Assembly: GCA_964506505.1 (NCBI GenBank)
Contig: CAZDKY010000047.1
Span: forward strand, 721 to 64,720
DNA: 64,000 nucleotides
DNA from: an uncultured Syntrophomonadaceae bacterium
Lineage (GTDB): Bacteria; Bacillota; Dethiobacteria; DTU022
Direction of reading: 5' to 3'
The notes under the pieces were generated by a model. The model worked only from the letters and a program-made list of their open reading frames with translations, made no database searches and was not told the DNA's origin. How positions within the stretch are numbered: the stretch's first letter is position 1; each line of letters opens with the position of its first letter. The position numbers and the translations under genes are program-made. Shown here piece after piece: positions 11,072 to 26,884 of this stretch.

Positions 11072-11109
11072 CAGATTCCGGCAGATTCAATCCGGAATCT
11101 GTTTTTCTT
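11072..11109 (+). terminator. rho-independent terminator after the histidine kinase
   Basis: Perfect 10-bp stem CAGATTCCGG/CCGGAATCTG followed by TTTTTCTT. Confidence 0.7.
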
Positions 11110-11367: not shown

Positions 11368-11745
11368 ATGAGAAAGTTAACGACAGTAACTCTGGTAATG
11401 CTGTTTGCCTTTAGTTTGATGGCAGGAACAGCTCTGGCGGAAAGCAGTGAATGTCCGGCAGCGCCCGCTGTAGCAAATGAGTTATTAAGAGAAGCATTAA
11501 GAGAAGCAGGCGAAAATAACCCCTACGGCAGCGGTCGTGACGGTAGCAACTACATCAGTGATGTGGCCCACGAGATGGGCAGCCATGAAGAGGATGAAGA
11601 GAACACTGATTTCCAGGGAGTTGGGAAATGCGATCAGGAAGCATACAAAGAAGCAATAGCCGCGTTCCTTATAGAAAAGGGAGCGAATGTTGAAATCCCG
11701 GATCCTGAAGTTGAACCGGAGGCGATGCTGAACATGGATACATGA
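11368..11745 (+). CDS. small secreted acidic protein (signal peptide, 2 Cys), function unknown
   Basis: Strong RBS AAAGGGGGAT. N-terminal signal peptide MRKLTTVTLVMLFAFSLMAGTALA, then an acidic mature part; followed by a terminator. No recognised family. Confidence 0.55.
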   Translation: MRKLTTVTLVMLFAFSLMAGTALAESSECPAAPAVANELLREALREAGENNPYGSGRDGSNYISDVAHEMGSHEEDEENTDFQGVGKCDQEAYKEAIAAFLIEKGANVEIPDPEVEPEAMLNMDT

Positions 11746-11842
11746 GAAACCTGTAATGTCGCTAATCAGCTAAATGATCAGCGCTGGAAGTAAACCGGCT
11801 GATGATTTGGCTTTAGCCCACAAGAAGGAAAAAGCCCCGCGC

Positions 11843-11875
11843 TCGAAAGCGCGGGGCTTTTCTTTTGTCAGTCCC
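11843..11875 (+). terminator. rho-independent terminator
   Basis: Stem GCCCCGCGC / GCGCGGGGC with loop TCGAAA, followed by TTTTCTTTT. Confidence 0.75.
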
Positions 11876-12082
11876 TCTCAATCATGGGCGTTAACCTGGC
11901 GATGGAAATCCGCCGAGAGCTTAACATTATGAAGGAATACTTCAAACAACAGGTAACCTGGATTTAAAAATACTGCTATAGTTTATGGCACAATAAAAAC
12001 AAACAAATTGGTGGTATACGCAGGAACCGATATGCCGGGTCATATCCGCTGGTTCGGCTCACCCTGGCTTTCCTCACTGCGG

Positions 12083-12135
12083 AAGTAACGGACAACCGAA
12101 GCGATATCGACGGGCACTTAGCCCATCCTGCCGTG
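12083..12135 (-). pseudogene. remnant of the 3' end of a paralog of the CrtI-like/Cys-tail gene at 13894..15747
   Basis: About 53 bp roughly 80% identical to 13911..13969, the last ~20 codons of that gene. The minus-strand reading ...HGRMG*VPVDIASVVRYF matches ...HGKMGGIPVDIASVVGYF but carries an in-frame stop. Directly abuts repeat copy B. Confidence 0.45.
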
Positions 12136-12206
12136 ATTGATAATAGCTCCACTGCTCCGGCTCACATGTAAGATATTACACGAATATATGAAGGGAATTC
12201 AAACGG
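12127..12206. repeat. about 80-bp repeat element R, copy B
   Basis: About 85% identical to 8416..8495 in the same orientation; lies just downstream of the stop of the CrtI-like gene at 12255. Confidence 0.7.
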
Positions 12207-12254
12207 TTTGGGGGAACAACTTCATGGTACAAAAGGAAGATCACAGGCGGCGCC

Positions 12255-13892
12255 TCAATTTCGAGGGTTTTTTGCTTTCTGCTTCTGCTGAAGAACCCGG
12301 TCGGCAGCCAATTTGCCGGTAAGAATGGCCACCGGCAGGCCGGAGGGACTGAAGGACCACTGGCCGGCCTTGCATACTTCTGGAATGGCGGTTTCGACGG
12401 ATTTAGTGATACGGGCAAAGCGGTTTTCCACCGGCAGCGGCTGTTCGGTGAAGGACCAGCCGGTTATCGCTCCCCCGGAACTGCCATTGATCCGCTCGAT
12501 GGACAGGGGAGTGGAAGAAAGTCTGCTGATCACTTTCTCTTCCAGGCCCGGGTAGAGTTTTTCGGTCAGAAGTCGGGCAATATATTGTTCGCTGAATTCC
12601 TTAAATTCCCCGTAGCGGCCTTCCGCATCAATTTCTCTGACCAGTTCGTAGTCGAAGAGAGTGCTGACGATCAGACCGCTCTGTCCGGCGGGGGCCAGGC
12701 TGCCGTCGCGGACGGCGGGGCAGGAGATCTCAAAAGTGTTCAGGTCAAAAAAGCGCTCAAGCCAGGCCCGCAGGTCCTGCCAGAGGGAAGCGGGCGGGCG
12801 GCCGTCAGCGTTCTCACCGGGCCGGCTTTCTTCCCGCAGCCGGTGGAGTCCTTCGCGGCTCGGGGTATAGAAAAGATGAGGGCCACCGGTGGCGGCAAAA
12901 TAATCGGGGGGCAGGTCCACGGTCAAATAGAGGCTGAAGATTGAATCGCCCCCTCTTCCCCTGTTAATGTTTGCCTTTTCTCCGGCAACGGTTTTTTGCA
13001 CGGCAGGATCATCAATCTGTTCTGTATCGATGGCCGAGTAAAGCTTTTTCAGATCGGCGGCCCAGATCAGCTGTCCGTATTGAAATCGATCTCCGGAGAC
13101 ACTGCGGATCAGCTTCTGCTGTAGATCGACTTCTTCAATTTCCGTTTCCAGGCGGATCTCGCCGCCGTGGTCGGCTATAAAGCGGGCCATTGTGTCGACC
13201 AGTGCTCCCGTGCCTCCTATCGGGTAGTTGTAATCAAGGTAGAGGCTGAAGTAACTCAGGGCGAAGAAAGCCGGAGTTTCAGTAAAGAAATGCTGGGCAA
13301 TCATGTCAGCAAGGGAACGGTTGGCGGTCAAGCGGCTGAGGTGCTCATAGACAGGGGTCTGCATCTTCATCGCTTTGCGGATATTATACTGATATTTCAG
13401 GAGCCAGGGCAGGACTGTTTTGAAAAGGTAGCGGCGGTCATTTTTCAGGTCCCGGAAGAGCGGGTTGTCAATGCCGTAGAGAACATCCATATAGCCGATT
13501 ACTTTTCTGATCTCGGCTATAATTTTTTTAATGTCATCCCCGTTATTTGGGAAGAGATCTTTTAGGAGGCGGCTGTAATCATCAAGACTTTCCGGCCCTT
13601 TCAGCTTGATAAAACGATCTTCAATGCCCAGGGATACGGGGCTTCTGACGAACTCGACTTCCAGGCCGAGATCTCGCAGCATCGGAAAGACAATGCCCGA
13701 GTTTTCGATGGCCCGAATTCCGCCGTCAAAGGTAAAACCGTCCACGGTAAACGAGTTAACCAAACCGCCGACTTTTAAGTTTTTCTCGCAGAGCAGCACC
13801 CGCTGGCCTGCCCGGCTGAGATAGGCGGCTGCAGTCAGACCGGCCATGCCGGCTCCGACGATTACAGTGTCGTAGCTAACATCCTTGCTCAT
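12255..13892 (-). CDS. phytoene-desaturase-family (CrtI-like, COG1233) NAD(P)/FAD-dependent oxidoreductase
   Basis: FAD-binding DTVIVGAGMAGLTAAAYL...GG fingerprint and amine-oxidase/CrtI-like length. I use the ATG at 13892 (MSKDVSYDTVIVGAG) with GGGAGG 7 nt upstream, rather than the track start at 13922. Confidence 0.8.
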   Translation of the reverse strand: MSKDVSYDTVIVGAGMAGLTAAAYLSRAGQRVLLCEKNLKVGGLVNSFTVDGFTFDGGIRAIENSGIVFPMLRDLGLEVEFVRSPVSLGIEDRFIKLKGPESLDDYSRLLKDLFPNNGDDIKKIIAEIRKVIGYMDVLYGIDNPLFRDLKNDRRYLFKTVLPWLLKYQYNIRKAMKMQTPVYEHLSRLTANRSLADMIAQHFFTETPAFFALSYFSLYLDYNYPIGGTGALVDTMARFIADHGGEIRLETEIEEVDLQQKLIRSVSGDRFQYGQLIWAADLKKLYSAIDTEQIDDPAVQKTVAGEKANINRGRGGDSIFSLYLTVDLPPDYFAATGGPHLFYTPSREGLHRLREESRPGENADGRPPASLWQDLRAWLERFFDLNTFEISCPAVRDGSLAPAGQSGLIVSTLFDYELVREIDAEGRYGEFKEFSEQYIARLLTEKLYPGLEEKVISRLSSTPLSIERINGSSGGAITGWSFTEQPLPVENRFARITKSVETAIPEVCKAGQWSFSPSGLPVAILTGKLAADRVLQQKQKAKNPRN

Positions 13893-13893
13893 A

Positions 13894-15747
13894 TCAGCGC
13901 CTCCCCGGCTTAAAGTAACCAACGACAGAAGCGATATCGACGGGTATTCCGCCCATCTTGCCGTGGATGCAGGACTGCATCGCTTCGAAAATCTGCTCTT
14001 CCTGCCCGCCTTCGGACCAGAAGCGTTCAGCTATTTTAGCCGCCCCGGCAAAATTGCCCACGGTTATCCTTCTCATGATTCCCCGCACGTCGAGCTCTAC
14101 GGCATCGCGACAGCCGGGTTGCTCGCAGTATTCGCAATGCCGTGCTTTGAGCATGATCTCCCGCTTTTCAGGACTGAATTCACGGTAGAGATCTTCCTGG
14201 CGGTATGGTTTATCCACCAGGCGGACATAATTTTTCATCCCCCGCCGGTAGTTAAAGGGCTCGAGGCCTCGTTTTTTGAGAACTGCGTTAGCAGCGGAAA
14301 GACCGGAGACGGTAACCGCCGGGGTACCGGTACCCATGACCGTCGATTCACCGCAGCAAAAGAAGTTCTCCCACCCGGTGCGGGTGTGCAGGCGGTTGAG
14401 CAGATGCTGGCCCAGCATCTGTTTCGGGCCGGCCACGGCACCTCCCTTTTTCATTGTATAGCGCTCGATGGTGGCCGGGGTGGCTATTTCGGCATAGCGG
14501 ACCTTTTTGCTGAGGCCGGGAAATTTCTTTTCCAGAATGGCCAAAAGGCGTTCCTTTTCCTGCTCTTTCTGTCCGTCATATTTTTCTTTGTTGCTGCGGT
14601 CCCATTTGCCAAAATTAGGACCCATAGCCACCAGAACATGTCTGTCTTCGGGGCAGAGAGTTTGATCGTCAATGCTGAAGATGAAAATTGTTACCTCGCC
14701 TTCATCGATCTGGTCAGGGTTGCCGATTAGCATTTCGATGGGCAGGGTGCGGGCCGGGATAGCATCCCTTTCTACCAGGGCATAAAGGACCACGCTGGGA
14801 TAGGTGGGTACCTGCTTTTCCGCCCATTCTCTGAGACCAGGCTGCAGGTGGGTTTCGGGAATCAGCTTGCCGTAGAGGTTCCAGACTGTACCCGAATAGA
14901 TTATCTCACTGGCAAAGAGTTCTTCTCCGTCAACCAGTTTCACACCGGCAGGACGGCTGTCGTCAAAGAGGATTTCGGCTACCTCTTTTTTCATGAGCAT
15001 GGTACCGCTGTTTTCTTCGATCACCTTCTCCAGCTTGCCCGGTAAAAACACTGTCGAGCCGGCCGGATAGAAACTTCCCCCCACATGGTTTTCGATAAAC
15101 ATGATCGCCGCCAGGATAGCCGGGGTCTCCAGGGTGGTAGTGTAACAGTAGGTGGAAGTGAGCTTGTCAAAGAAGTTGAAAAGCTGCGGGTCGCTGAAGT
15201 ATTTTTCCAGCAGGCTGCGGGCGCTTTTATTCATGTAGCCCAGGAAGCGGGCGAAGGAAAGGGGGTGTTTCAGCAGGGCCGGCAGTGATTTAAACTTGTC
15301 TGTTTCGTCGGGGGCGGCATAGACTGGATTTTCGACCATGACGTGGCGGTACATTTTCTCAAGATCGGCGTAGAACCTTCTGATGTTTCCCTTTTCGGAA
15401 GGGAAAATTTTACCCAGTTCTTCGGCAAAATGCCTTACATTGGGCCAGAATTTTATTTTCTTGCCCCGGTAATTGATGCAGTAGAGCTGATCATGCCGAA
15501 TCATATTTATAGGTTCTTCCAGGCAATTGAAAACAAAGCGGTTAGGGTTGAAACCTTTTTCGCCAAAGCCGAAAAGCATGGCCGAACCCTGGTCGAAGAT
15601 TGTGTCACCCCGCTTGAATATACCGCAGGAACCGCCGGGGTTGTAGTTCTTATCAATTACGGCCACCTTCACCCCTCTTTTGGCCAACAGAGCCGCTGCG
15701 GTCAACCCGGAGAGACCAGCCCCGATTACGATAACATCGTACTGCAT
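13894..15747 (-). CDS. phytoene-desaturase-family oxidoreductase with a C-terminal Cys-rich (dihydroprymidine-dehydrogenase/GltD-like Fe-S) tail
   Basis: YDVIVIGAGLSGLTAAALL FAD motif. A C-terminal ~90 aa with CEYCEQPGC...C resembles the helical 4Fe-4S domain at the N-terminus of GltD/DPD. Start moved to the ATG at 15747 (RBS AAAGGGTG). The stop overlaps the start of the paralog at 13892. Confidence 0.75.
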   Translation of the reverse strand: MQYDVIVIGAGLSGLTAAALLAKRGVKVAVIDKNYNPGGSCGIFKRGDTIFDQGSAMLFGFGEKGFNPNRFVFNCLEEPINMIRHDQLYCINYRGKKIKFWPNVRHFAEELGKIFPSEKGNIRRFYADLEKMYRHVMVENPVYAAPDETDKFKSLPALLKHPLSFARFLGYMNKSARSLLEKYFSDPQLFNFFDKLTSTYCYTTTLETPAILAAIMFIENHVGGSFYPAGSTVFLPGKLEKVIEENSGTMLMKKEVAEILFDDSRPAGVKLVDGEELFASEIIYSGTVWNLYGKLIPETHLQPGLREWAEKQVPTYPSVVLYALVERDAIPARTLPIEMLIGNPDQIDEGEVTIFIFSIDDQTLCPEDRHVLVAMGPNFGKWDRSNKEKYDGQKEQEKERLLAILEKKFPGLSKKVRYAEIATPATIERYTMKKGGAVAGPKQMLGQHLLNRLHTRTGWENFFCCGESTVMGTGTPAVTVSGLSAANAVLKKRGLEPFNYRRGMKNYVRLVDKPYRQEDLYREFSPEKREIMLKARHCEYCEQPGCRDAVELDVRGIMRRITVGNFAGAAKIAERFWSEGGQEEQIFEAMQSCIHGKMGGIPVDIASVVGYFKPGRR

Positions 15748-16160
15748 TTTCTTCACCCTTTCTTCCGCATCGCCGTCCGGCAACTTTAAAAAAGATTAAT
15801 CAGGTTTCTTACAGCTCCGGGAGTTGGCGATCTGCGGAGGCAGGCTGTCCGAATATATATTGTTTATATTATATGTTATTTTCACTGTGACAACCACTCT
15901 AAATTTGCAGATATTTATAATTAAGGGCGGCGGGTGTTAGCCCAGAATTTTTTTACCCTCTTCTCATTGAATTAATATAATCCGCTTACAGTTGAAAATA
16001 TTTTTATTTTACATTAAGATTTCGTAACAGCCGCAAATCTTCAAGCAAAGAGAATGATTTTGGAGTAGTTTTGGAGGATAATATAATGAACTAATAACCG
16101 GGGCAGTGGGAAAAGTATCTGCGGAGTAAGAAACCTGCAGCAGTGGCCAGTCTGCAGAAA

Positions 16161-17282
16161 TTAGAGCAGATCCTCCACCATTCTGGCGATGCTCAGGCAG
16201 GAGGTCAGACCGGGCGATTCAATACCAATCAGGTTGATCAGGCCCGGCAGGCCGCGGCTGCTTTCTTCGGCGATCACAAAATCACGGAAAGGCTGGCCGG
16301 GCCCGGAAAGTTTACCCCTGATTCCGGCCATATCAGGTTCCAGGTCGTTCAGCTCGACAAAGGGCAGGAACGATTTGACGGCATCATAGAACTCAACAGC
16401 CCGGGCCGGATCAACCAGGTAGTCGATTTCATCAACGTAGACAGTGTTGGGTCCAAGGATTAGGCGCCCGTCAAGCATCTTGGTTACATGGATGCCAAGG
16501 CCGGTCAGCTCATGAAGGGGCGGCGGGTAAATCAGGCGCTCTACCAGGGAAGCCTTGGCCGGGGGCAGGCTGAAATATTCGCCCTTGCAGAAGTACTGGC
16601 GGTAACCGGCTTCAATGATATCGATACCGGCGGCTGCCGCCAGACTGCCAGCCTGCAGCCCGGCGCAGTTAACCACGTTTAGACATTCGAGTGTGTCCGG
16701 GCTGCCGTCCGGATTCTTATAGTTAACCCGGTAACCATCGGTGCATCGTTCGATACCCGTAACGCAGTGGCAGTAAGCAGGCATAACCCCATTCTGCAGG
16801 GCATCTTCCTCCAGGCGGGCCATTAAAGTGTGGCTGTCGATTATGCCGGTGGAGGGCGAAAAAAGGGCGCAGTCTGCTTTGATATGCGGTTCCAGACGGG
16901 TCACCATTTTACGGTCCATCATTTCCAGGTTTTCGACCCCGTTGGCGGAAGCCTGCTCAAGAAGGCTGTCAAGTGAAGCGCATTCTTCGTCTGTATTGGC
17001 GACGATTAGTTTGCCGCGTTGGTTGTAAGGAACATTTCGATCATCACAGTAGGCATAGAGCAGCTCCCGTCCCTCCAAGCAAAGACGGGCTTTGAGGGTA
17101 CCTGAAGGATAGTAGATGCCGGCGTGGATTACCTCGCTGTTGCGGCTCGATGTTTCTCGGCCAAAGTGTTCGCGCTTCTCCATGAGAACTAAAGTCCGGG
17201 CATTTTGTTGGGCGGAAAGCCTGGCGGCGACAGCCAGGCCGACTACTCCGGCCCCGATAATTACGGTGTCAACTTTATCCAT
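16161..17282 (-). CDS. FAD-dependent oxidoreductase of the L-2-hydroxyglutarate oxidase (LhgO)/glycerol-3-phosphate dehydrogenase family
   Basis: N-terminus DTVIIGAGVVGLAVAARL...SSRNSEVIHAGIYY is closely similar to the LhgO/YgaF family; 373 aa. Confidence 0.8.
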   Translation of the reverse strand: MDKVDTVIIGAGVVGLAVAARLSAQQNARTLVLMEKREHFGRETSSRNSEVIHAGIYYPSGTLKARLCLEGRELLYAYCDDRNVPYNQRGKLIVANTDEECASLDSLLEQASANGVENLEMMDRKMVTRLEPHIKADCALFSPSTGIIDSHTLMARLEEDALQNGVMPAYCHCVTGIERCTDGYRVNYKNPDGSPDTLECLNVVNCAGLQAGSLAAAAGIDIIEAGYRQYFCKGEYFSLPPAKASLVERLIYPPPLHELTGLGIHVTKMLDGRLILGPNTVYVDEIDYLVDPARAVEFYDAVKSFLPFVELNDLEPDMAGIRGKLSGPGQPFRDFVIAEESSRGLPGLINLIGIESPGLTSCLSIARMVEDLL

Positions 17283-17338
17283 TGCTGCCCCTTTCTTACG
17301 TAAATCGGAACCGTATTTAAGATGTACTGCGATATGTT

Positions 17339-17363
17339 TTCAGGTAAAATTTCTACCTGAAAT
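17339..17363. promoter_or_regulatory. perfect 9-bp-arm palindrome TTTCAGGTA-N7-TACCTGAAA upstream of the LhgO-like gene
   Basis: Seen directly in sequence, 55-80 nt upstream of the start at 17282; candidate operator or attenuator hairpin. Confidence 0.4.
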
Positions 17364-17438
17364 GTCTAACATGTATTCTCTGAATATGAATATGAATAAA
17401 ATCCTGCCGCCGGTTTTAAATGACTTCTGCGCCAATTT

Positions 17439-20400
17439 TTAGCGGCAGGATAGGATGGCTTCACGCAGACGTGCTATTTTTTCTTTAGATCCTGCATCAT
17501 CAGGAGCCGCTGCAGCCAGGTAAAACTTAACCTTTGGTTCGGTGCCCGATGGGCGTACTGCAAACCAGGTGCTGTCGGCCAGGGTATAGTGAAGAACCGG
17601 AGAGCGCGGCAGGGTAAGAGCAAATTCTTCCCCTGTCTGCAGGTTCCAGCCTTTTCCTTGTGCATAATCCCTTTTGAAAACCAGCTGCTGCCCGGCAAAT
17701 TGGGGCGGCAGATCTTTGAAGACGTTTACGTGCCGATCGGCCTGGGAGATATCCTCCAGTTCCACGGTGAGAAGTTCGTCACGGTGGTAACCGTGGCGGC
17801 GGTGCAGCTCGTCAAGCAGATCGAAGAGGGTCTGACCCTGCTCCTTGTAATAGGCAACCATCTCGGCGATGAGCATAGAGGCGATAACCGCGTCCTTGTC
17901 GCGAACAAAGGTGCCGGTGAGATAACCGTATGATTCCTCGTATCCAAAGACGAAACTGCCAGTTCCCTTCTCTTCAAACTCCTTCATTTTATCCCCAATG
18001 AATTTGAAACCGGTCAGGGTTTCAACAACGCGCAGACCATAGTGGGCCGCTACTTTGCGGCCAAGATGCCCGGTAACGATAGTTGTCACAAGGACAGGAT
18101 CAGGCGGCATGGCTTTTCTGTCGGTAAGGCGGCTGCAGATATATTCCAGGAGCAGGGCACCCACCTGGTTGCCGTTAAGCATCCGGAGGCAGTCAGCAGC
18201 ATCGCGGGCGGCGACACCGACACGGTCACAGTCGGGGTCGGTAGCCAGCACCAGTTCAGCACCTTCCTGTTCCGCAAGGTCCAGGGCCATTTTTAGGGCA
18301 GCGGGATCTTCGGGGTTGGGGACGCTGACGGTGCTGAATTCACTGTCAGGAACCATCTGCTCTTTCACCGGGATATAGTCAACATGGGGAGCGCGGTTGA
18401 GCAAGTCCGGGATGTACACCGAACCGGTGCCATGCAGGGGAGTAAAAACTGTTTTGACCACTGCCCGCGGTTTGCTCATGGAAAGGGCAGACACTTTTTC
18501 TATATAGTGCCGGTCGAGATCCGGATCAACTTCCTGCAGTAACCCACGGCTGACTGCTTCACCACGGGAAAGCTGTTTGACGTCAGCAAAGATATCCACT
18601 TTCTTGATGGCGGCGATTACTTCGTCCACCAGAGGGCTGACTGCCTGGCCGCCGTCGGGACCATAGACCTTGTAGCCGTTGTACTGCCGCGGGTTGTGGC
18701 TGGCAGTGATCACGATGCCGGCAGCGCAGCCCAGCTCACGGGTGGCGAAGGAAAGGGCCGGAGTTGGCCTGATATCGCTGAACAGGAAGGCCCGGATACC
18801 GTTGGCAGCGAGAACCAGGGCCGCCGTTTCGGCGTAAAAAGGTGAATAACGGCGTGTGTCGCAGGCAATGGCCACGGCTGGTAGATCTTCAATGGCAAGA
18901 TCGGCGGCGGAAGCGCCGTCATCTGATTGCGACCGGACCCTGCGGTTTATATAGTCGGCCAGGCCCTGGGTAGCGCGGCCGATGACATAGCGGTTGATCC
19001 GGTTCAGGCCGGGGCCAATGATCCCACGCATGCCGCCAGTGCCAAAAACAAGTTCACTGCCGAAATGGCGCTCGATGGACTCGGGATCTTCCTGCATGGC
19101 CTGTAGTTCTTTTTTCATTTCCGGATCAAGGCCGGGCTGACCGAGCCAGCTGCGGAAGTGTCGCCGGGCCGGTGATTCTTCTTGTGACTGCGAGTTGGCA
19201 TGTGCCGGTGCGGATGAATCAATTCGTCCGTAATCGTCCTCGTAACGCTCAATATCGTCTTCCCCCAGGTAATCGCCGGTCTGCACTTCGATGAGGGCCA
19301 TCTCCTCTTCGCCACGGTTTTCAAGGCGGTGGCGCGCCTCGACAGGTATAAAGGCTCTTTCTCCCACTTTTAATGTAAACTGGCGATCGTCTATGGTGAC
19401 CAGTGCTTCGCCGCGGATAACCACCCAGTTCTCGGCCCGCCGGTGGTGGCTCTGCAGGCTGAGGCGTGAACCGGGGCTTACGTTGATCCTTTTAACCTGG
19501 TATCCGGGTCCGGTTTCCAGGGAGGTATAGCTACCCCAGGGTCGGTAGACGGTGCGGTGTTCGCGGGCTTCTACAGCACTGCTTTCTTTGAGGCGATCGA
19601 CAATTTTCTTCACATCCTGGCTGCAACTGCGGTCGCAGACCAGGAGAGCATCGTGAGTATCGACGATTACCAGATCCTTCAGGCCGATGGCTCCTGTAAG
19701 ACGGGACGGGGAAATAATCAGGCTATTTTCGGTATCCACGGATATTACCTGCCCTCGGAAGGCGTTCCCGCGGTTGTCTCGTCCGGAAAGCTGGTAGTAG
19801 GCTTCCCAGCTGCCAAGGTCACTCCAGGTAATATCCGCAGGGATAACGGTTACCTCGTCGGAACGCTCAAGGATCCCGTAATCTATGGATATTTTTTGCA
19901 GGTTGTGATAGGCTTCGTCCAGCATCTCTTTCCTGCTGTAATCGATCCGGACCAGGGTGTCGTAGATCTGAGGTAATAGTTTTCTGTACTGTTCCATAAG
20001 GGTGTCAACCCGGAAGATAAACATACCGCTGTTCCATAGAAAACGGGGATCTTTCAGGTAGGCAATGGCTTTTTCCAGATCCGGTTTTTCAACAAATTTT
20101 TCAACGCGGAAGGTTTTGTGATCAAGTTTTTCACCGCAGCAGATATAGCCGTAGCCGGTTTCCGGGTAGGTGGGACGAATGCCAAAAGTAACCAGGCCGT
20201 AGTTTTCGGCAGCCCGGGCACCGTCTTCCAGGAGAACAGCAAACTGGTCCCGGTCTGGAATGAGGTGATCGGAGGGTAACACTGCCATCACTGCATCGGG
20301 CTCCGCTTCTTTCTGCAGAAAGCGGGCGGCCAGACCGATAGCCGGGGCTGTGTTACGGGCTTCCGGTTCCTCGAGCAGGCGGATTTTTGTCAGGCCAGCC

Positions 20401-20702
20401 AGCTTCAGGCGGCGCTTGATTTCGCCCGCCTGGTCGCGGTGGGTGACTATGAGTATATTTTCTTCCGCCACCACGGTGAGGACACGGCTGATCGTTTCAC
20501 CAAGAAGAGTCACTTCACTAACCGGGTCTGAGGGAGAAGATTCTCCTTCCTCCGGATGGTTTTGAGTTCTGTTATTCTTTATCATACTTTGATCTGAAAC
20601 CGGCAGTGGAAGAAACTGCTTGGGATAAAGTTCACGGCTCAGCGGCCAGAGCCTGGTACCGCTTCCGCCGGCCAGGATTACAGTGTACAGCATAGAAATC
20701 AC
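17439..20702 (-). CDS. fusion protein: mannose-1-phosphate guanylyltransferase (ManC) + cupin mannose-6-phosphate isomerase domain + phosphomannomutase/phosphoglucomutase (1087 aa)
   Basis: N-terminus VILAGGSGTRLWPLS (nucleotidyltransferase). Middle cupin domain (VKRINVSPGSRLSLQSHHRRAENWVVIRGEALV). C-terminal half with the phospho-sugar mutase active-site loop GIVITASHNP and a PgcA/ManB-like fold. One uninterrupted ORF. Confidence 0.85.
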   Translation of the reverse strand: MISMLYTVILAGGSGTRLWPLSRELYPKQFLPLPVSDQSMIKNNRTQNHPEEGESSPSDPVSEVTLLGETISRVLTVVAEENILIVTHRDQAGEIKRRLKLAGLTKIRLLEEPEARNTAPAIGLAARFLQKEAEPDAVMAVLPSDHLIPDRDQFAVLLEDGARAAENYGLVTFGIRPTYPETGYGYICCGEKLDHKTFRVEKFVEKPDLEKAIAYLKDPRFLWNSGMFIFRVDTLMEQYRKLLPQIYDTLVRIDYSRKEMLDEAYHNLQKISIDYGILERSDEVTVIPADITWSDLGSWEAYYQLSGRDNRGNAFRGQVISVDTENSLIISPSRLTGAIGLKDLVIVDTHDALLVCDRSCSQDVKKIVDRLKESSAVEAREHRTVYRPWGSYTSLETGPGYQVKRINVSPGSRLSLQSHHRRAENWVVIRGEALVTIDDRQFTLKVGERAFIPVEARHRLENRGEEEMALIEVQTGDYLGEDDIERYEDDYGRIDSSAPAHANSQSQEESPARRHFRSWLGQPGLDPEMKKELQAMQEDPESIERHFGSELVFGTGGMRGIIGPGLNRINRYVIGRATQGLADYINRRVRSQSDDGASAADLAIEDLPAVAIACDTRRYSPFYAETAALVLAANGIRAFLFSDIRPTPALSFATRELGCAAGIVITASHNPRQYNGYKVYGPDGGQAVSPLVDEVIAAIKKVDIFADVKQLSRGEAVSRGLLQEVDPDLDRHYIEKVSALSMSKPRAVVKTVFTPLHGTGSVYIPDLLNRAPHVDYIPVKEQMVPDSEFSTVSVPNPEDPAALKMALDLAEQEGAELVLATDPDCDRVGVAARDAADCLRMLNGNQVGALLLEYICSRLTDRKAMPPDPVLVTTIVTGHLGRKVAAHYGLRVVETLTGFKFIGDKMKEFEEKGTGSFVFGYEESYGYLTGTFVRDKDAVIASMLIAEMVAYYKEQGQTLFDLLDELHRRHGYHRDELLTVELEDISQADRHVNVFKDLPPQFAGQQLVFKRDYAQGKGWNLQTGEEFALTLPRSPVLHYTLADSTWFAVRPSGTEPKVKFYLAAAAPDDAGSKEKIARLREAILSCR

Positions 20703-20968
20703 TCCACTTCACACACTATATTTTCTACCTTATTTTATAACTGCTCAGGCATGGACTGCTGTGTCAGGAGGGCTGAAAGAGCCGTCCTTCTGTGTGCCAG
20801 AGGAATGAATGGACGGTTCCCCCCTCTCTCCCGGCGCGCTTTCTGCCCGTTAAAGATATTTCTACTGATTTGTTTGCTCCAGGCTACCCCGGGGTTGAGG
20901 GCAGGTGAAAAAGGCTTAATAACACTATTCACATGATAAAAGTGTGTCAATTCCTCCGCCCCCCTGTG

Positions 20969-23278
20969 TTACAGGTTAATTTGCTGCTGCTGCTGGGAAA
21001 GGCCCTGGTGAGCCACCAGGTGCATGCGCTGCAGGGCCAGCAACAACGAAACTACTGATTCGCCGCCCTGGTTCCGGTTGATGCCGCCGGGATGGAGGCC
21101 GTCGTAGCAGGCCCCGGTGGAAAAATTATAGAGAGGCTGACGAACGTCGTTGCTGCCGAAGAACCAGTTGAAGGCCCATTCCATGTGCCGAAGCCAGTTG
21201 CTGTCGCCGGTGAGCACGTAGGCCTGGTAACAGGCATCGATGAGGGCAGCAGCGTCGACCGGCTGCTGGTCAAAGCGAGCCTTGTTTCCACCCCTCTTGT
21301 ACCACCCGTCATTGCCGATCAGGGAAAGATGGCCATTCTCTTCGCTGGTGTTGACATTGATCAGCCAATGCAGGCTCTGCAGACCAGTTTCAAACATTTT
21401 TTCTTCGTCCAGCATGCCGCCGGCCACCAGAAGGGCCTGTGAGATACGGGCGTTGTCATAAGCAAGAATGTCTTCGCACCAGTGCCAATCGTCGTCGGCA
21501 TTTTTTTGATGAAGATGGTAAATTTTTTCGGCCAGTTCTTTCATGATCTGGCGGACGCGGGCATCACCACCAAAGCGGCGCAGGTAGTAGTTGGCACCGA
21601 TCACAGCAAAAGCCCAGGCTCGCGGCGAAGTAAAGCGAAGCGGGGTATCGATCAGGTCTTTGAAAAGCCTGGTGGCCAGGCCGAGAATATCGTCACCCGG
21701 CGGATGGGCAATGGTATAACCGAGAGCCCAGAGGGTGCGTCCATGGCTGTCCTGGGAGCCACTTTCTTCGAGCCATCGGCGGTCGAAACTCATGAAATTG
21801 CGCATTCGCTTGCGATTTTCATTGTAAGCGTGGTGCAGAAAACTGATATATTTTTTCAGCATCCTGATCACCGGTTCGTCCTTGAAAAGACGCCAGTTCA
21901 TCACAGCAACGATCAGGGCGCGGGCGTTGTCGTCTGTGCAATAGCCATGGGTCCGATCGGGAACAGCGTAAATGGCGTGCTGGAATAGACCGGTGTCGTC
22001 AGTCATGTCGCGCAGGTGTCCCAGGTTCGGTTCTGGCAGGACTGCCCGTTCGGTAACATCGGCACTTTGCAGGGAAGGCACAAACATTTTACTGTAGCTG
22101 AAACGAGCTTGCTCGAAGGCAGTGGCATAGCTGCGAGCAACCTCTTTCCACACCATCTGCCTTCCCTGCTGGTAGGCTTTCTTACGCATGCGGTTACGGC
22201 GGCCTTCGTTACTGAGCAAGTCGATAATTTCATCGGCCATCGCCCCGCTGTCCTTGAAGGGAACGAGACTGCCGCATCCATCGGCTAACAGTTCCTCAGC
22301 GTAGATATAGGGGGAGGAGACAATCGCTTTGCCGCAGGCCAGGGCATAAGCCAGTGTGCCTGAGGTAATCTGCTCGCGATTCAAATAGGGTGTGATATAA
22401 ACATCGGTGGCCACAAGGAACTGGACCAGGCGCTCCAGGGAAACATACTGGTTATAAAAGGCAACGTTTTCTTCAAGACCCATGTCACGGACCATCTTCT
22501 GCAGGCGAAGACGATATTCTTCGCCGTAACGGCGTTTTACCTCGGGGTGGGTGGCACCGAGAATAATATAGAGGGCATCGGGATGCACCTGAACCACTTT
22601 TTCCATCGCCTCAACGGCATACTCCAGGCCCTTGCTCGGACTGAGCAGACCAAAGGTTAGCAGGAGCTTACGCCCCTCGGCCTGGAACTGGTCCTTATAA
22701 TAGGAAGAGTCCAGAAAGGGAACATCGGGTGCCCCGTGGGGAATAAGCAGGATCTTATCGTCAGGCACACGGTAAACCCGCCGGAGAATATCCAGGGCAG
22801 CCTGGGCCATGACCACTACAGAGACGGATTGCTCGCAAACGCGCATCAGCGTTTGCCGCTGGCCTGGAGTAGGATCCTCGAGAACAGTATGCAGGGTGGT
22901 TATGGTCGGTTTTCTAAGGCCGGACAGCAGATAGGTAATGTAGCTTCCATCTTCACCGCCAAATATGCCGTACTCATGCTGGATGGAGACTGCATCTACT
23001 GGAGAGTGGTTGATAAAGTCGGCCGCCCGCTGGTAGTCGGCACGATGCTGGTCGCGAATATGAAAGGTCACTGTGCGGTCGTAATTGAAATTATCGTTGA
23101 TGCTGTTGAGAGCTATTACCTCAAAATTTTTCTGCTCGCTGCTGTCGGCATTTTCGCCGTAGAGCTCTTTCATGCTGTTGAGCAAGTCCCCACAGAAGGT
23201 GGCAATACCGCACTGGCGCGGTGGATAGGTTGAAATAAAAGAGAGCTTGACCGGACGGAGAATTTTACCTGGATGCAT
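20969..23278 (-). CDS. GT4 glycosyltransferase fused to a C-terminal ~370-aa glycosidase-like (six-hairpin / amylo-alpha-1,6-glucosidase-like) domain
   Basis: N-terminal 400 aa is a Glycos_transf_1/GT4 fold (STYPPRQCGIATF ... EGFGL-like region). The C-terminus (DDTGLF...HGYCTDDNARAL...WHWCEDILAYDNARI) looks like an (alpha/alpha)6 glycoside hydrolase; its family is uncertain. Start set at the ATG at 23278 (MHPGKIL; AAGAGG 8 nt upstream). Confidence 0.75.
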   Translation of the reverse strand: MHPGKILRPVKLSFISTYPPRQCGIATFCGDLLNSMKELYGENADSSEQKNFEVIALNSINDNFNYDRTVTFHIRDQHRADYQRAADFINHSPVDAVSIQHEYGIFGGEDGSYITYLLSGLRKPTITTLHTVLEDPTPGQRQTLMRVCEQSVSVVVMAQAALDILRRVYRVPDDKILLIPHGAPDVPFLDSSYYKDQFQAEGRKLLLTFGLLSPSKGLEYAVEAMEKVVQVHPDALYIILGATHPEVKRRYGEEYRLRLQKMVRDMGLEENVAFYNQYVSLERLVQFLVATDVYITPYLNREQITSGTLAYALACGKAIVSSPYIYAEELLADGCGSLVPFKDSGAMADEIIDLLSNEGRRNRMRKKAYQQGRQMVWKEVARSYATAFEQARFSYSKMFVPSLQSADVTERAVLPEPNLGHLRDMTDDTGLFQHAIYAVPDRTHGYCTDDNARALIVAVMNWRLFKDEPVIRMLKKYISFLHHAYNENRKRMRNFMSFDRRWLEESGSQDSHGRTLWALGYTIAHPPGDDILGLATRLFKDLIDTPLRFTSPRAWAFAVIGANYYLRRFGGDARVRQIMKELAEKIYHLHQKNADDDWHWCEDILAYDNARISQALLVAGGMLDEEKMFETGLQSLHWLINVNTSEENGHLSLIGNDGWYKRGGNKARFDQQPVDAAALIDACYQAYVLTGDSNWLRHMEWAFNWFFGSNDVRQPLYNFSTGACYDGLHPGGINRNQGGESVVSLLLALQRMHLVAHQGLSQQQQQINL

Positions 23279-23562
23279 AAAAAACACCTCTTTTTTCAGA
23301 AGTCGGTTATCAGAATACCGTAAGGCCGGGATTTAAAATACCGGCAACTCGGAACAGAATAACTTTTTCTAGAAACTGTTGATCCGGGAAATTTGATCAG
23401 CTTAACATATAGATCGTTTAAATAAGTATAATTCCACTTAAGCATTATTCAAGAGGTTTTCAGAAGTTTTTAAGGTTTATCGCCTGGTGTGCTCAATCTT
23501 TCTGCATAATCGGCTAAAGTCTTCCCAGGTTATATAAATGGTGTAGCAGGCAGGGGTTCTTC

Positions 23563-24693
23563 TCAGGCCCGGCTGTGCAATATTTTTTTATATACTTCGA
23601 TATAGCGATCCACCATCAGGTCGGTGGTAAAGTTTTCTTCCACGTGGCGGCGGCAGTCACGGCGATCGATGCGGTCAAAGCGAGCCAGGGCTACACCGGC
23701 TTCGTCAAGGCTGTCAACCAGGAAGCCGGTCTGGCCATCTTTGATCAGCTCGGGCATAGAGCCCCTGTTAAAAGCAATTACCGGGGTGCCGCAGGCCATT
23801 GCTTCTACTACGCTCAGTCCGAAGGGTTCATCAAAATTTATCAGGTGCAGGAGGGCACCGGCGCGCCCGAGGACCTCTCCTTTTTCAGCCGGTCCTACGG
23901 GGCCGATGTAGTAAACCTGCTCACCATCCAGGTAAGGCTTGACATAGCGGTCGAAGTAGTTCTGATCCTGGATAATGCCGGCAATGACCAAAGGCAGTCC
24001 GGCCTGCTTGGCCAGGCGAATTGATTCATAAGCGCCCTTGTCATGGTGAATACGGCCAAAAAAGAGCAGATAGCCTGGCGCCGGGATCTGCGAGTATTTT
24101 TCCCGGGGGACCTCCGGCGGCCTGAATTCCGGTCTTTTTTCATACTGCTCTTTTTTACGTTTTGGCAGATTAACTTCTGCCGGGTTGCCCTGCGGATCGG
24201 CAAAGAAGGGATATTCTTCAACCGGTATACCGTGATGGACGGTAGCTGCATAATCAAGAGCAGGGTGGCGATCTGCTTCACTGATGGCCACGTAATGGAC
24301 ACGGCCGTTGTAGCGCCGGAAGACCGGAAGGATCCGCGGCGAAGAAAAGCCGTGGATAGTTGTTAAAACCGGGGTATCCACAAGCCCTGAATAGCTGAGG
24401 GGCAGGAAATCGAAATTATTATGAATCAGGTCATAGCAAGAAGCCTCCTCGAAGACGGAGGCAATGTGCAGGCATTCCCACACTTTTGGGTCGAGTTCCG
24501 GGTCTTCCGACCAGGGACGCGGCGCTACCGCCTTCAGGTAGCCGGCGGTAATGGAATCGGCAGTGGCATAGAGTGTAACTTCTATTCCACGCCGGATTAA
24601 ACCTTCGGTAAGCACACTGACAACCCACTCCCAGGGTCCATAATGCCGGGGTGGGGTGCGCCAGGATATGGGTGACAGCATGGCAATTTTCAT
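23563..24693 (-). CDS. GT4-family glycosyltransferase
   Basis: GT-B fold with the C-terminal EPFGLSVVEAMACGTPVIA motif typical of retaining GT4 enzymes; 376 aa. Confidence 0.85.
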   Translation of the reverse strand: MKIAMLSPISWRTPPRHYGPWEWVVSVLTEGLIRRGIEVTLYATADSITAGYLKAVAPRPWSEDPELDPKVWECLHIASVFEEASCYDLIHNNFDFLPLSYSGLVDTPVLTTIHGFSSPRILPVFRRYNGRVHYVAISEADRHPALDYAATVHHGIPVEEYPFFADPQGNPAEVNLPKRKKEQYEKRPEFRPPEVPREKYSQIPAPGYLLFFGRIHHDKGAYESIRLAKQAGLPLVIAGIIQDQNYFDRYVKPYLDGEQVYYIGPVGPAEKGEVLGRAGALLHLINFDEPFGLSVVEAMACGTPVIAFNRGSMPELIKDGQTGFLVDSLDEAGVALARFDRIDRRDCRRHVEENFTTDLMVDRYIEVYKKILHSRA

Positions 24694-24723
24694 CTCACTG
24701 GAGAAGACAAAAACCTCCTCTCT

Positions 24724-25698
24724 CTAAGTAAGACAGAAACCTTCATCCTCGGAATCGTTGCAGTTCAAAAGATAACTGACCAGGTCTTTCAATTTAGCTG
24801 AAGCCAGGCAGACGCTGGAATCGGCTGCCCCGTAATACATGATCAATTCATCGTTGATATGGTCGTAAATTGTCCCTGTGGGGAAGGTTACACCGGGGAC
24901 GTCACCGACCCGTTCGTACGGTTCGTGGGGGCCAAAAACCCACTGGTCGCAGCGTTTCCTGATTTTCCACGGTTCATCCAGGTCGAGCAGGGCCAGACCG
25001 ACCCGGTAGAGGCTCCCGGAAGCAGTATCACGCACACCGTGATAGATGATCAGCCACCCTTCGTCGGTTTCAATGGGCGGCGGCCCAAGGCCGACGCGAG
25101 TGGTGTCCCACCAGCCGGGGCGGACAGGCAGCAATATTTTATGTTCACCCCAGTGGATCATGTCGGGCGAATTGGCAATCCAGATGTGGGCTTCACCGCG
25201 GATAATGGGCCTGTGTATGAGCATGTAGCGGCGGTTGATCTTGCGCGGGAAAAGCGAGGCATCCTTGTCCTCGGGAGGGAGCATGGCCCCGCGGCGCTTG
25301 AAGGTAACCAGATCACTGCTCAGGGCCAGGGAAACAACCGGCCCGTCCTTGGAAAAGGAAACATAGGTAACGGCATACTTTCCCAGGTCTTCAAGCCAGA
25401 CGATGCGGGGATCTTCAATGCCCCACCGTTCTTCGTCGTAATTGGAGTTGGGCATGAGCGCGGGCTGATTGTCGATCTGCCAGTTTGTTTTGCCGTCCTC
25501 ACTGCGGGCAAAGGTGAAATGGGAAAAACCCCGCATGTCCTCGACGCGGACCAGCAGGTGGACCTTGCCTTCATGCTTGATGGCAGCCGGGTTAAAGGTA
25601 GCATTGACCGGGTAAGGCCAGCAGTCCGGAAAAAGGATCGGATTTCCCTCAAATCTTTCAAATATTCCGGTTGGCCTGTAGTGGTTATGATAGATCAT
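24724..25698 (-). CDS. GH130-family glycoside phosphorylase/hydrolase (beta-mannoside phosphorylase-like, former DUF377)
   Basis: Five-bladed beta-propeller signatures (FNPAAIKHEGKVHLLVRVED, GIEDPRIV, GWLIIYHG). Ends in TAG, and the reading frame continues into the downstream GT4 gene. Confidence 0.8.
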   Translation of the reverse strand: MIYHNHYRPTGIFERFEGNPILFPDCWPYPVNATFNPAAIKHEGKVHLLVRVEDMRGFSHFTFARSEDGKTNWQIDNQPALMPNSNYDEERWGIEDPRIVWLEDLGKYAVTYVSFSKDGPVVSLALSSDLVTFKRRGAMLPPEDKDASLFPRKINRRYMLIHRPIIRGEAHIWIANSPDMIHWGEHKILLPVRPGWWDTTRVGLGPPPIETDEGWLIIYHGVRDTASGSLYRVGLALLDLDEPWKIRKRCDQWVFGPHEPYERVGDVPGVTFPTGTIYDHINDELIMYYGAADSSVCLASAKLKDLVSYLLNCNDSEDEGFCLT

Positions 25699-26125
25699 AC
25701 CCTGGTTCTCCTTTTGGCAATAAGATACAATATATATGGACAGGCTTGCAGTTTGTTAACTTGTTTACATCACTGTATCTTTATTATTATATTAGATAAC
25801 ACATTTCCATCCTTCTTTAAATAAAATTCGCTCTTCACCTGGAGTTTTCCTTTTTTCCGTCCGTTACCGGCGTTCATCCACGGCTTCGCCTTTTAGTGCT
25901 TTTTTACCGCCGCTTCCGGCGCTCCAGGGCCGGATTTTCTTTCTTCCCGCACTCACTTATCATCTTCTGTCCAGTTTTATCTTGCGCTTTTTTTTTAATC
26001 CCGTTCTCCGGTTTCTTTTATAGCCCGCTTTCATATCATTGCGGTTGCTTCATGCCGGACAAAAGGGGTCATCATTTTTTGCTTGTTCGCTTCGGTGATT
26101 TCGTGATTGGAGCCGCTTTTCCCAT

Positions 26126-26812
26126 TTAGAAGAAATAGCGCTTGATCTGCTCGAAGTTGCGGCGCACGTTCTCTTCCTGCGTAACAATGCCCATGTGGCC
26201 GGGAAGAAGCAGTTCTATGTCTTCCAGTTTGGAAAGCTTTTCAATACTTTGGCCCAACGCGGCCATATCGCCGCCGGGCAGGTCAGATCGGCCGATGCTG
26301 CCATCAAAAACGGTGTCGCCGCTAATGAGGGCTTTTTCATTGAGCAGGTGAAAACAGACACAGCCCGGAGAATGACCGGGGGTATGGTAAACTTCGATAC
26401 GGTCACTGCCACCTTCTACACCGAGATCCAACGTCCCTTCTTCAAGGTAGAAATCCGGTTTGAGATTGAGCTCATCTCCCGTGTTGGAAAGGTGGCGTTT
26501 GGCTATGGCTTCAACGATAAATTCGTCATCTTTGTGCATACCCACGGTAACACCGCTTTCGGCACGGAGCACACTTACGGCTTCCACATGATCTGGATGG
26601 CCATGGGTGCACAGGATCAAGTCAATATCGGTAACGTCAAAACCATCCTGGTTTAGGCTATCAACAAGGGACTCCAGGCAAGCTTCGTTGAACTCATTGA
26701 CGATGTATCCGGGATCAAACAAAATGGTCTTTTCCCCTTTGAACAGGTAGCTGTTGCAATTGTTGGCATTCCCCCGCCAGGGGTAAAAGTAAAGTTTATC
26801 CGTCAGTTTCAT
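26126..26812 (-). CDS. MBL-fold metallo-hydrolase
   Basis: HxHxDH motif (CTHGHPDHVEA) and a downstream HTPGHSPG; start set at the ATG at 26812 (MKLTDKLYF). Confidence 0.8.
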   Translation of the reverse strand: MKLTDKLYFYPWRGNANNCNSYLFKGEKTILFDPGYIVNEFNEACLESLVDSLNQDGFDVTDIDLILCTHGHPDHVEAVSVLRAESGVTVGMHKDDEFIVEAIAKRHLSNTGDELNLKPDFYLEEGTLDLGVEGGSDRIEVYHTPGHSPGCVCFHLLNEKALISGDTVFDGSIGRSDLPGGDMAALGQSIEKLSKLEDIELLLPGHMGIVTQEENVRRNFEQIKRYFF

Positions 26813-26884
26813 CGTAAGTTTCCTCCTTTTTCTGAAGGATTTCAAACAATTCATATCATACCACAGGAAAAGCCGGTTGCCAAA

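Follow-up and report, generated by a model that had tools for sequence, protein, structure and literature searches.

A conserved gene unit linking a predicted GH130 mannoside phosphorylase to GDP-mannose synthesis and two GT4 glycosyltransferases in an uncultured Syntrophomonadaceae bacterium

The physiological role of beta-1,2-specific phosphorylases of glycoside hydrolase family 130 (GH130) beyond gut mannan degradation is unsettled. In Thermoanaerobacter sp. X-514, the genes Teth514_1785-1789 encode a glycosyltransferase (GT)-like protein, a family 4 glycosyltransferase (GT4), a mannose-1-phosphate guanylyltransferase (MPG) and two GH130 beta-1,2-mannoside phosphorylases, and according to the authors no source of beta-1,2-mannan is known in this genus (PMC4264767). 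In Leishmania, a mannogen cycle is attributed to MTP mannosyltransferase/phosphorylases of family GT108 (Sernee et al. 2019, as cited in PMC8950772 and PMC12814180). Here we analyze a 64,000-nucleotide stretch of DNA (the window) from an uncultured Syntrophomonadaceae bacterium (GenBank assembly GCA_964506505.1, contig CAZDKY010000047.1, positions 721 to 64,720), in which genes for a GH130 enzyme, two GT4 proteins and a GDP-mannose-forming enzyme stand in a row with three flavoprotein genes. The original prediction, made from the sequence alone, had treated all seven as one locus. We find that four of them form a conserved unit, for which we propose a role in building and recycling a mannoside.

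The seven long open reading frames (ORFs) are co-oriented and adjacent on the minus strand, spanning positions 12255-25698 in the ORF listing of the window, and their coordinates, strand and domain content agree exactly with the original description (Table 1). Domains were assigned by Pfam and NCBIfam profile searches. Synteny was compared across 64 loci that encode a relative of the GT4 fusion protein, taken from a scan of one genome per species, with gene content determined by tblastn and all-against-all ORF clustering; two further loci (L069 and L070) were examined with independent gene calls. The GH130 gene and the small GT4 gene are each present in 48 of the 64 loci. GH130 adjoins the GT4 fusion gene in 25 of the 28 loci that have enough flanking sequence, and the median distance between the two is ∼1 kb over all loci with GH130. 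The gene for the fused ManC-type enzyme (ManC-PMM) is found in 35/64 loci, in Bacillota, where it follows the GT4 fusion gene, and the upstream MBL-fold gene in 30/64, again only in Bacillota. The full set, or at least its GH130-plus-fusion minimum, occurs in Bacillota, Bipolaricaulota, Gemmatimonadota, Calditrichota, Actinomycetota, Latescibacterota, Thermodesulfobacteriota/Deltaproteobacteria, Spirochaetes, WOR-3, and Chloroflexota. In L070 (Dethiobacteria), the order is GH130-GT4-fusion-ManCPMM with gaps of −4, 88, and 59 bp. In L069, GH130, the fusion gene and ManC/PMI form a three-gene operon surrounded by housekeeping genes on the opposite strand, and the ManC equivalent is an unfused ManC-PMI. 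Conservation across phyla and in tight operons supports a functional link among the GH130, small GT4, GT4 fusion and ManC-type genes, as had been expected of the GDP-mannose gene, the two GT4s and the GH130.

Close homologues of both the fusion protein and CrtB come from uncultured Bacillota, many labelled Syntrophomonadaceae or Dethiobacteria, with soda-lake sediments, digesters and hydrothermal sediments as source habitats. On the nearest contigs, L001 and L002, the fusion-protein orthologues are 94% and 92% identical, respectively, and the contigs themselves match the window at 84%-92% nucleotide identity. Right after ManC-PMM, L001 has a TRAP (DctPQM) transporter (15848-18949), which precedes its LhgO gene, and L002 has genes for a PrpD-like protein, an OpuA-type glycine-betaine ABC transporter and an isochorismatase (15795-21741). 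Two neighbors seen in other phyla or loci should also be mentioned. In the deltaproteobacterial loci L048-L050, the fusion gene is immediately preceded, on its own strand, by a RelA/SpoT-domain gene (HD plus synthetase), and L036 and L063 have a divergent upstream gene for a GntR-type regulator that carries a sugar-binding domain.

The three flavin adenine dinucleotide (FAD) oxidoreductases, which had been counted as part of the same pathway, fall outside this unit. CrtA and CrtB are encoded in 0 of the 64 loci, including the 94%- and 92%-identical relatives, and they recur together elsewhere: in A. bakii, 3 kb separate the CrtB homologue from a homologue of CrtA (53% identity), and in L068 the gene for a CrtA homologue of 536 residues comes right after that for CrtB. 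Glyco genes are missing from the surroundings in both cases. In another locus (L067, CrtB 83%), the order is TRAP, LhgO, CrtB, a 50-residue CrtA remnant and ABC-F. LhgO is a neighbor in a subset of relatives: it follows ManC-PMM in 10 Syntrophomonadaceae-like loci, is split from it by the TRAP transporter in L001 and by two other genes in L010, and is missing in L002 and in all other phyla. CrtB-CrtA is thus an independent flavoprotein pair common in anaerobes, inserted here beside a lineage-specific LhgO-like gene. Because CrtA and CrtB are missing from all 64 loci and are paired elsewhere without glyco genes, the window is best described as a glyco operon next to a variable segment, which runs in the order LhgO, CrtB-CrtA, repeat, two-component system, repeat and ABC-F. 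Two or more units without relation to each other thus stand side by side in the 13-kb stretch, among them the conserved glyco operon (17439-25698) and the flavoprotein pair (12255-15783). The original prediction had named absence of linkage in relatives as what would speak against it; the synteny comparison found this for CrtA and CrtB and placed LhgO outside the conserved unit as well, and it upheld the linkage of the four glyco genes. The glycosylated-isoprenoid and hydroxy-acid-glycoside products that had been suggested lose their basis because the FAD genes lie outside that unit.

The predicted phosphorylase matches the GH130 model PF04041 at 188.8 bits, and its Protein Data Bank (PDB) matches include TM1225 (3e-58) and Teth514_1788 (6e-50). 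When positions of the characterized enzyme UhgbMP are carried onto it through a HMMER alignment, R59, Y103, D104 (the catalytic proton-donor Asp), R150, R168, H231 (the last two phosphate-binding) and D304 correspond to R51, E95, D96, K145, R163, H220, and D293. Phosphorylases are set apart from hydrolases by UhgbMP R168 and H231 (Li et al., PMC7660257, Table 2), and a pair rule at the +1 subsite assigns Y/R to beta-1,4, E/R to beta-1,3, and E/K to beta-1,2 linkages (Li et al., PMC7660257); the tested case U3 conformed to this rule (PMC7660257). The window protein has the phosphorylase set (D96, R163, H220) and, with E95/K145, the E/K pair, so that the choice between phosphorylase and hydrolase, raised in the original prediction, falls to the phosphorylase residue set. 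Local motifs are also close to those of Teth514_1788 (GIEDPRIV versus GLEDPRIV, with KDASLFP common to both). An eight-residue signature that includes the E/K pair is identical in 47 of 57 GH130 copies linked to a fusion gene. The N-terminus, MIYHNHYRPTGIFERF, is not hydrophobic (maximum hydropathy 0.99) and has no signal peptide. Taken together, the gene is predicted to encode a cytoplasmic beta-1,2-mannoside phosphorylase. Variants exist among the relatives: a second GH130 with an E/R pair, predicted to be beta-1,3-specific, is found among L038, L039, L048, L049, L050, and L053 (L039 has the E/R copy only), and long forms of 488-513 residues occur in the spirochaete loci L054-L056 and in L053, with Gln or Ala at the R59-equivalent position in the spirochaete long forms.

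The ManC-type fusion scores 506.3 bits against TIGR01479 (cut-off 373), PGM_PMM domains I-IV are all present, and the motifs GGSGTRL, TASHNP, DPDCDR, EESYG, and RPSGTEP are intact. The protein is predicted to combine a mannose-1-phosphate guanylyltransferase, a mannose-6-phosphate isomerase (PMI, a cupin domain) and a phosphomannomutase/phosphoglucomutase (PMM).

The small GT4 is related to the glucosylsucrose synthase TeGSS (PDB 7FG9/8X3Q; 1e-70, about 40% identity over 340 residues), and the alignment shows that the equivalents of TeGSS Tyr18, Arg179, Lys184 and the EX7E Glu are conserved. TeGSS Trp10 aligns with Ser10, with a Trp at position 11. The next relatives are tetrahydrobiopterin glucosyltransferases; these enzymes and TeGSS all use soluble acceptors.

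The second GT4 is the N-terminal domain of the fusion protein. It is a generic member of the family (Pfam Glycos_transf_1, 75.5 bits), and its best PDB sequence matches are the GDP-mannose-dependent PimA and PimB', plus MshA. The C-terminal half (∼360 residues), which had been called glycosidase-like, was modelled alone and is confidently predicted by AlphaFold to be an (alpha/alpha)6 barrel (pLDDT 91, pTM 0.91). Foldseek places YPO2471 (7TEM) first (4.5e-14, TM 0.77), then cellobiose 2-epimerase/AGE-family proteins, then GH9 and GH76; several epimerases and isomerases are matched at TM 0.65-0.70 with E-values of 1e-9 to 1e-7. Sequence similarity to 7TEM is weak (3e-12 with a profile), Pfam, including its epimerase models, gives no match to the domain even at E≤10, and a literature search found nothing on YPO2471. 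The family is large: with clusters drawn at 50% identity, an exhaustive HMMER search matches 4816 of them at E≤0.001, and 1060 still match at E≤1e-30. Among the best 150 relatives, fused forms of ∼760 residues are mixed with entries of ∼360 residues, several of which lie on very short contigs and may be gene fragments. The domain does exist on its own, as a 359-residue protein of a Parapedobacter isolate. It also occurs at the N-terminus of proteins that end in an alpha/beta-hydrolase esterase (BD-FAE) or a GFO/IDH/MocA oxidoreductase (P0251, P0264).

Across 152 diverse members of this domain family, the invariant polar residues are D430, H437, D452, D453, R456, N497, R517, R556, D729, N739, and E743, and several Trp, including W601 and W603, are invariant as well. 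H437 is the sole family-wide invariant His; the other conserved polar residues are mainly Asp, Glu, and Arg. Members of the AGE/cellobiose 2-epimerase family use a catalytic His pair. We considered an AGE-type epimerase for the fused domain, which would echo the epimerase-plus-GH130 mannan pathway, and set it aside as no His pair is evident, H437 being the only invariant one. Judged by its conserved residues, the domain looks like a carboxylate-rich carbohydrate-processing site, more of the glycosidase or transglycosylase kind than an AGE-type epimerase.

How could these activities fit together? We put the chance that the four-gene unit is a cytoplasmic cycle, in which a soluble mannoside is built and then released by phosphorolysis, at about even. 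This, which is also the outline of the original prediction, is the best reading of the unit. ManC-PMI-PMM would convert fructose-6-phosphate via mannose-6-phosphate and mannose-1-phosphate to GDP-mannose; its domain content is as given above, and the flux is our extrapolation. The two retaining GT4s would use a nucleotide sugar, most likely GDP-mannose, to place an alpha-linked core or primer on a soluble acceptor, a step that we infer because the small GT4 is 40% identical to a glucosylsucrose synthase and the fusion resembles PimA and MshA. GH130, as its residue signature suggests, would add or remove beta-1,2-linked mannose by way of mannose-1-phosphate and phosphate, and stored mannose could return to glycolysis without ATP cost through the reversible PMM and PMI domains of ManC-PMI-PMM. 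Least certain is the part of the (alpha/alpha)6 domain, whose invariant Asp-Asp, Asp, and Glu may serve to trim, transfer or rearrange the glycan.

By analogy with Leishmania mannogen, a plausible role for the product is that of a soluble carbon reserve and/or a stress-protective solute. The hints are weak: many of the source labels are soda-lake sediment, betaine and TRAP transporters lie near the unit in close relatives, and the RelA/SpoT-domain gene is upstream in the three deltaproteobacterial loci noted above. All tested beta-1,2-specific GH130 phosphorylases accept GDP-mannose weakly (Ladeveze et al., PMC12814180). A bolder form of the proposal, which we regard as possible although rather doubtful, is that an intracellular beta-1,2-mannoside reserve or protectant, a counterpart of mannogen in bacteria, is made by many free-living anaerobes of about a dozen phyla, being primed and remodelled by the GT4-(alpha/alpha)6 protein, elongated by the E/K-type GH130 from mannose-1-phosphate or GDP-mannose and mobilised by the same enzyme, with the (alpha/alpha)6 domain representing a new family of carbohydrate-active enzymes (CAZymes) and perhaps working as a transglycosylase, in analogy to the cyclisation domain of the cyclic beta-1,2-glucan synthase Cgs.

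Several observations weigh against a mannoside cycle, and the most serious concerns stereochemistry. GT4 enzymes are retaining and produce alpha-linkages, and GH130 enzymes are inverting and act on beta-mannosides. The GT4s and the GH130 therefore cannot act on one bond, so that either the product is mixed or the roles differ, and the scheme of an alpha-linked primer with beta extension is our own construction; we consider this the main weakness. In addition, overall score puts the window GH130 nearest, by a slight margin, to the beta-1,4 enzymes TM1225, RaMP2, and UhgbMP, with the beta-1,2 enzymes Teth514_1788, Lin0857, and Uhgb_MS coming next, and the predicted beta-1,2 specificity depends on the two-residue rule. 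The enzyme activities, the product and the donors and acceptors of both GT4s are all predictions from sequence. The gene neighborhood is not uniform either. In five Syntrophomonadaceae-like loci (L004, L009, L024, L046, and L052), the small GT4 comes right after the MBL gene and no GH130 stands between them, and because of these cases we conclude that the phosphorylase can be lost, being lost or moved in some lineages. In two more loci (L045 and L047), neither GH130 nor the second GT4 accompanies the fusion gene. Finally, three core genes in the window are spaced by gaps of 266-275 bp, so that co-transcription is not implied.

Three other explanations should be weighed against a mannoside cycle. 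One is salvage, in which GH130 would phosphorolyse imported beta-1,2-mannooligosaccharides, ManC would lead on to GDP-mannose, and the GT4s would spend it on an unrelated alpha-mannosylated cell component. The enzyme classes match those of the Thermoanaerobacter cluster (two GH130s, MPG, GT4, and a second GT-like protein), for which salvage was proposed (PMC4264767), and a divergent GntR-type regulator with a sugar-binding domain, as found in two loci, is typical of catabolic operons. We nevertheless think salvage unlikely, given that the module lacks a conserved companion of the transporter, secreted-glycosidase or solute-binding type throughout the 64 loci and in L069 and L070, whereas the Thermoanaerobacter cluster has both an ABC transporter and a GH5 that the module lacks. 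Moreover, the PMI and PMM domains provide a de novo supply from fructose-6-phosphate that pure salvage would not need. An envelope glycoconjugate, with the GT4s mannosylating a membrane lipid or lipoglycan precursor in the manner of PimA and PimB and with GH130 and the (alpha/alpha)6 domain editing or recycling the glycan, would suit the similarity of the fusion's N-terminal domain to PimA, PimB', and MshA, and it should be remembered that peripheral GT4s acting on lipids also have no transmembrane segments. Yet the module includes no polyprenyl-phosphate transferase, flippase, acyltransferase or membrane protein, the second GT4 is nearest to enzymes with soluble acceptors, and a dedicated trifunctional GDP-mannose enzyme suggests bulk flux, all of which leaves a role in the envelope distinctly improbable.

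The remaining alternative is the seven-gene pathway of the original prediction, yielding a mannosylated isoprenoid or a hydroxy-acid or glycerol glycoside whose aglycone is tailored by the three FAD enzymes. That all seven genes are co-oriented and adjacent in the window, that LhgO comes after ManC-PMM in 10 related loci, and that LhgO adjoins CrtB in L067 could be taken in its favor. We consider it very improbable, however, because CrtA and CrtB accompany the module nowhere among the 64 loci, the corresponding position lacks them in the 92%-94% identical relatives (L001 and L002), and the pair turns up in A. bakii and L068 away from glyco genes. Both proteins also score far under the CrtI and CrtISO cut-offs, and the repeat and gene remnant beside CrtA point to local rearrangement. 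The conserved operon couples a phosphorylase to de novo GDP-mannose supply without an importer, and thereby points to endogenous synthesis.

Table 1. Position of the features discussed, in coordinates of the window
Feature	Coordinates	Strand	Remarks
GH130 mannoside phosphorylase, predicted beta-1,2-specific, cytoplasmic	24724..25698	−	324 residues; core gene 1
Small GT4, TeGSS/BGluT-like group	23563..24693	−	376 residues; core gene 2; missing from some distant loci
GT4-(alpha/alpha)6 fusion protein, whole	20969..23287	−	772 residues
Fusion protein, N-terminal GT4 domain	22088..23287	−	Residues about 1-400; core gene 3
Fusion protein, C-terminal (alpha/alpha)6-barrel domain	20969..22060	−	Residues about 410-772; no Pfam model
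ManC + beta-helix + PMI cupin + four-domain phosphohexomutase fusion	17439..20702	−	1087 residues; core gene 4 in Bacillota
MBL-fold hydrolase, 5' of GH130	26126..26854	−	Lactamase_B 99.3 bits; conserved neighbor in Bacillota only
LhgO-like FAD dehydrogenase (DAO family)	16161..17282	−	373 residues; lineage-specific neighbor, outside conserved core
CrtB, CrtISO/RetSat-like flavoprotein	13894..15783	−	629 residues; C-terminal Cys motif; first gene of separate two-gene unit
CrtA, CrtI-superfamily flavoprotein	12255..13922	−	555 residues; overlaps CrtB by 29 nt; second gene of separate unit
82-bp repeat "R", second copy	12126..12207		blastn match to first copy, 8415-8496
Remnant like 3' end of CrtB-type gene	12083..12135	−	83% identical to 13913-13965; blastx
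Strong two-way terminator-like hairpin, left of gene row	11829..11862		15-bp stem, 9 G-C pairs, T-tails on both strands

Base composition offers little reason to regard the locus as foreign. Its GC content (0.534) equals that of the window (0.524), and synteny with relatives covers its right-hand two thirds together with the MBL, AFOR, and AzlCD genes on the flank; the description as accessory-looking was therefore dropped, as was a recently acquired island, which the composition does not back. The AT-rich intergenic gaps that had been remarked upon are real, measuring 156-427 bp at 37%-49% GC versus ∼54% within genes. A permissive Rfam scan of positions 8000-27500 found no riboswitch or leader in these gaps, only terminator-like noise near 11830, and when the region was scanned for consensus terminators, nothing convincing turned up between the seven genes. 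On the minus strand, the best promoter-like site (26883-26855) lies just upstream of the MBL gene. Promoter-like sites on the correct strand are also present in the gap between LhgO and CrtB, which weakly favors a separate CrtB-CrtA unit. In all seven proteins, every 19-residue stretch stays at or below 1.9 in Kyte-Doolittle hydropathy and the N-terminus is unlike a signal peptide, which bears out the absence of membrane proteins of the flippase or polymerase type from the row. Neither the window region nor the conserved module of related loci contains a polyprenyl-phosphate transferase, flippase, polymerase or exporter. The earlier judgment that this is not a classical polysaccharide cluster, having no Wzx/Wzy genes, stands.

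The flavoproteins themselves can be classified only broadly. CrtA scores 83.8 bits against TIGR02734 (cut-off 238), and CrtB scores 126.1 bits against the same model and 251 bits against TIGR02730 (cut-off 587). Both are below every curated family cut-off, with membership at the superfamily level only (PF01593, Amino_oxidase). The tail of CrtB, described earlier as Cys-rich, does contain a Cys motif, C-x2-C-x4-C plus one more, and the count is four Cys in the last 130 residues; in CrtB homologues, the C-terminal Cys motif gives faint Fer4_20 matches. Homologues of CrtB at 61%-65% identity are found in Acetobacterium, Parasporobacterium, Dehalococcoidia, and Thermotogota, and the CrtB/CrtA pair is strongly conserved in phylogenetically scattered anaerobes (the window, L065, L067, and L068). 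The LhgO-like protein scores 254.7 bits against NF008726 (cut-off 299) and 163.8 bits against the type-2 glycerol-3-phosphate oxidase (cut-off 460). By these scores, it is a relative in the DAO family that lies below the L-2-hydroxyglutarate oxidase cut-off.

At the left boundary, both elements of the earlier description, a pseudogene remnant and a copy of the repeat R, were recovered. The two copies of the 82-bp repeat are 86.6% identical by blastn, and the 53-bp remnant resembles the 3' end of CrtB, with 19 residues at 74% identity to the CrtB C-terminus by blastx. The repeat copies bracket a two-component system and a small secreted-protein gene, one being just upstream of the ABC-F gene (6300-8381) and the other just after CrtA. 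In L020 and L067, ABC-F is much closer to LhgO or CrtB than it is in the window. The arrangement suggests that the repeat mediated an insertion or a rearrangement, or else that a leader was duplicated.

Other features of the window lie outside the gene row. A dimethylamine methyltransferase (MtbB) gene (44440-45931, −) has a single in-frame stop followed by ∼110 further in-frame residues, and Rfam PYLIS_2 matches at the stop site (44713-44812; 47.2 bits, gathering score 36). Because the stop coincides with this element, MtbB is a pyrrolysine-type gene, here in a metagenome-assembled genome (MAG) of Bacillota. Nearby are a corrinoid protein gene downstream (43807-44451, −) and an MttB-family gene (37728-39245, −). 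The PYLIS match, together with weak Agl16 and archaeal GlmM matches, led us to consider an archaeal origin with a hydroxyarchaeol-type link to the CrtI proteins, and this was rejected as all close homologues are from Bacillota MAGs. Genes for a lysine-2,3-aminomutase-like radical SAM protein and an NhaC-type Na+/H+ antiporter are near neighbors (39314-40573, −, and 41355-42926, −), which could be linked to beta-lysine-type osmolytes or lysine fermentation.

As to novelty, the enzyme families and the idea of a cluster of GH130, GDP-mannose synthesis and GT4 are already known. Within the searchable library, literature searches that paired GH130 with GT4, MPG, compatible solutes or mannogen turned up no paper on the module, nor is the fused domain described there. 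What appears to be undescribed is the GT4-(alpha/alpha)6 fusion, the trifunctional ManC-PMI-PMM, the importer-free architecture and the breadth across phyla. A compact, cross-phylum operon in which a GH130 phosphorylase is joined by two transferases and by an enzyme for making GDP-mannose de novo, and which lacks an importer, bears on what such phosphorylases do outside the gut, and it brings out a large (alpha/alpha)6 family that has no Pfam model and is usually fused to GT4. There may be practical interest as well, given that enzymes forming beta-mannosidic bonds are wanted as biocatalysts. The locus also holds a lesson for annotation, namely that seven co-oriented genes need not constitute one pathway.

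Known systems resemble parts of this module to differing degrees. The best structural matches of the C-terminal domain are YPO2471 of Yersinia pestis (7TEM) and the AGE/cellobiose 2-epimerases (TM about 0.68 for the epimerases), from which it differs in having one invariant His and conserved Asp, Glu, and Arg instead. The small GT4 is ∼40% identical to TeGSS (7FG9; PMC9909042) over the whole length and keeps the equivalents of its diphosphate- and acceptor-binding residues Tyr18, Arg179, and Lys184. It differs by a 30-residue insertion (residues 170-200) and at Trp10, which in TeGSS stacks on the fructose of sucrose and is replaced by Ser10, with Trp one position later; its genomic partner is GDP-mannose synthesis, not UDP-glucose or sucrose metabolism. 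Cgs consists of a GT84 domain, an (alpha/alpha)6 cyclisation domain and a GH94 phosphorylase. The likeness, which is an analogy only, is that a nucleotide-sugar transferase, an (alpha/alpha)6 glycan-processing domain and an inverting 1,2-beta phosphorylase come together in both. The module, however, has GT4 and GH130 in place of GT84 and GH94, concerns mannose rather than glucose and lacks a membrane anchor, and a retaining GT4 cannot make the beta-linkage.

If the proposed cycle is correct, it would share with Leishmania mannogen, as that system is summarized in the citing papers, an intracellular beta-1,2-mannan made from GDP-mannose or mannose-1-phosphate, phosphorolytic mobilisation and enzymes of the GH130 fold; on the same summaries, it would differ in using GH130 rather than GT108 and in adding two retaining GT4s and an (alpha/alpha)6 domain. 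The closest described case remains the Thermoanaerobacter cluster. Common to both are a cytoplasmic E/K-type GH130, a GDP-mannose-forming enzyme and two GT-like genes on one strand in Bacillota, with the GTs likened by class only. Thermoanaerobacter has an ABC transporter, a GH5 and two GH130s, whereas the module in the window has neither transporter nor GH5 and a single GH130, and to it alone belong the GT4 fused to an (alpha/alpha)6 domain and the ManC fused to PMI and PMM.

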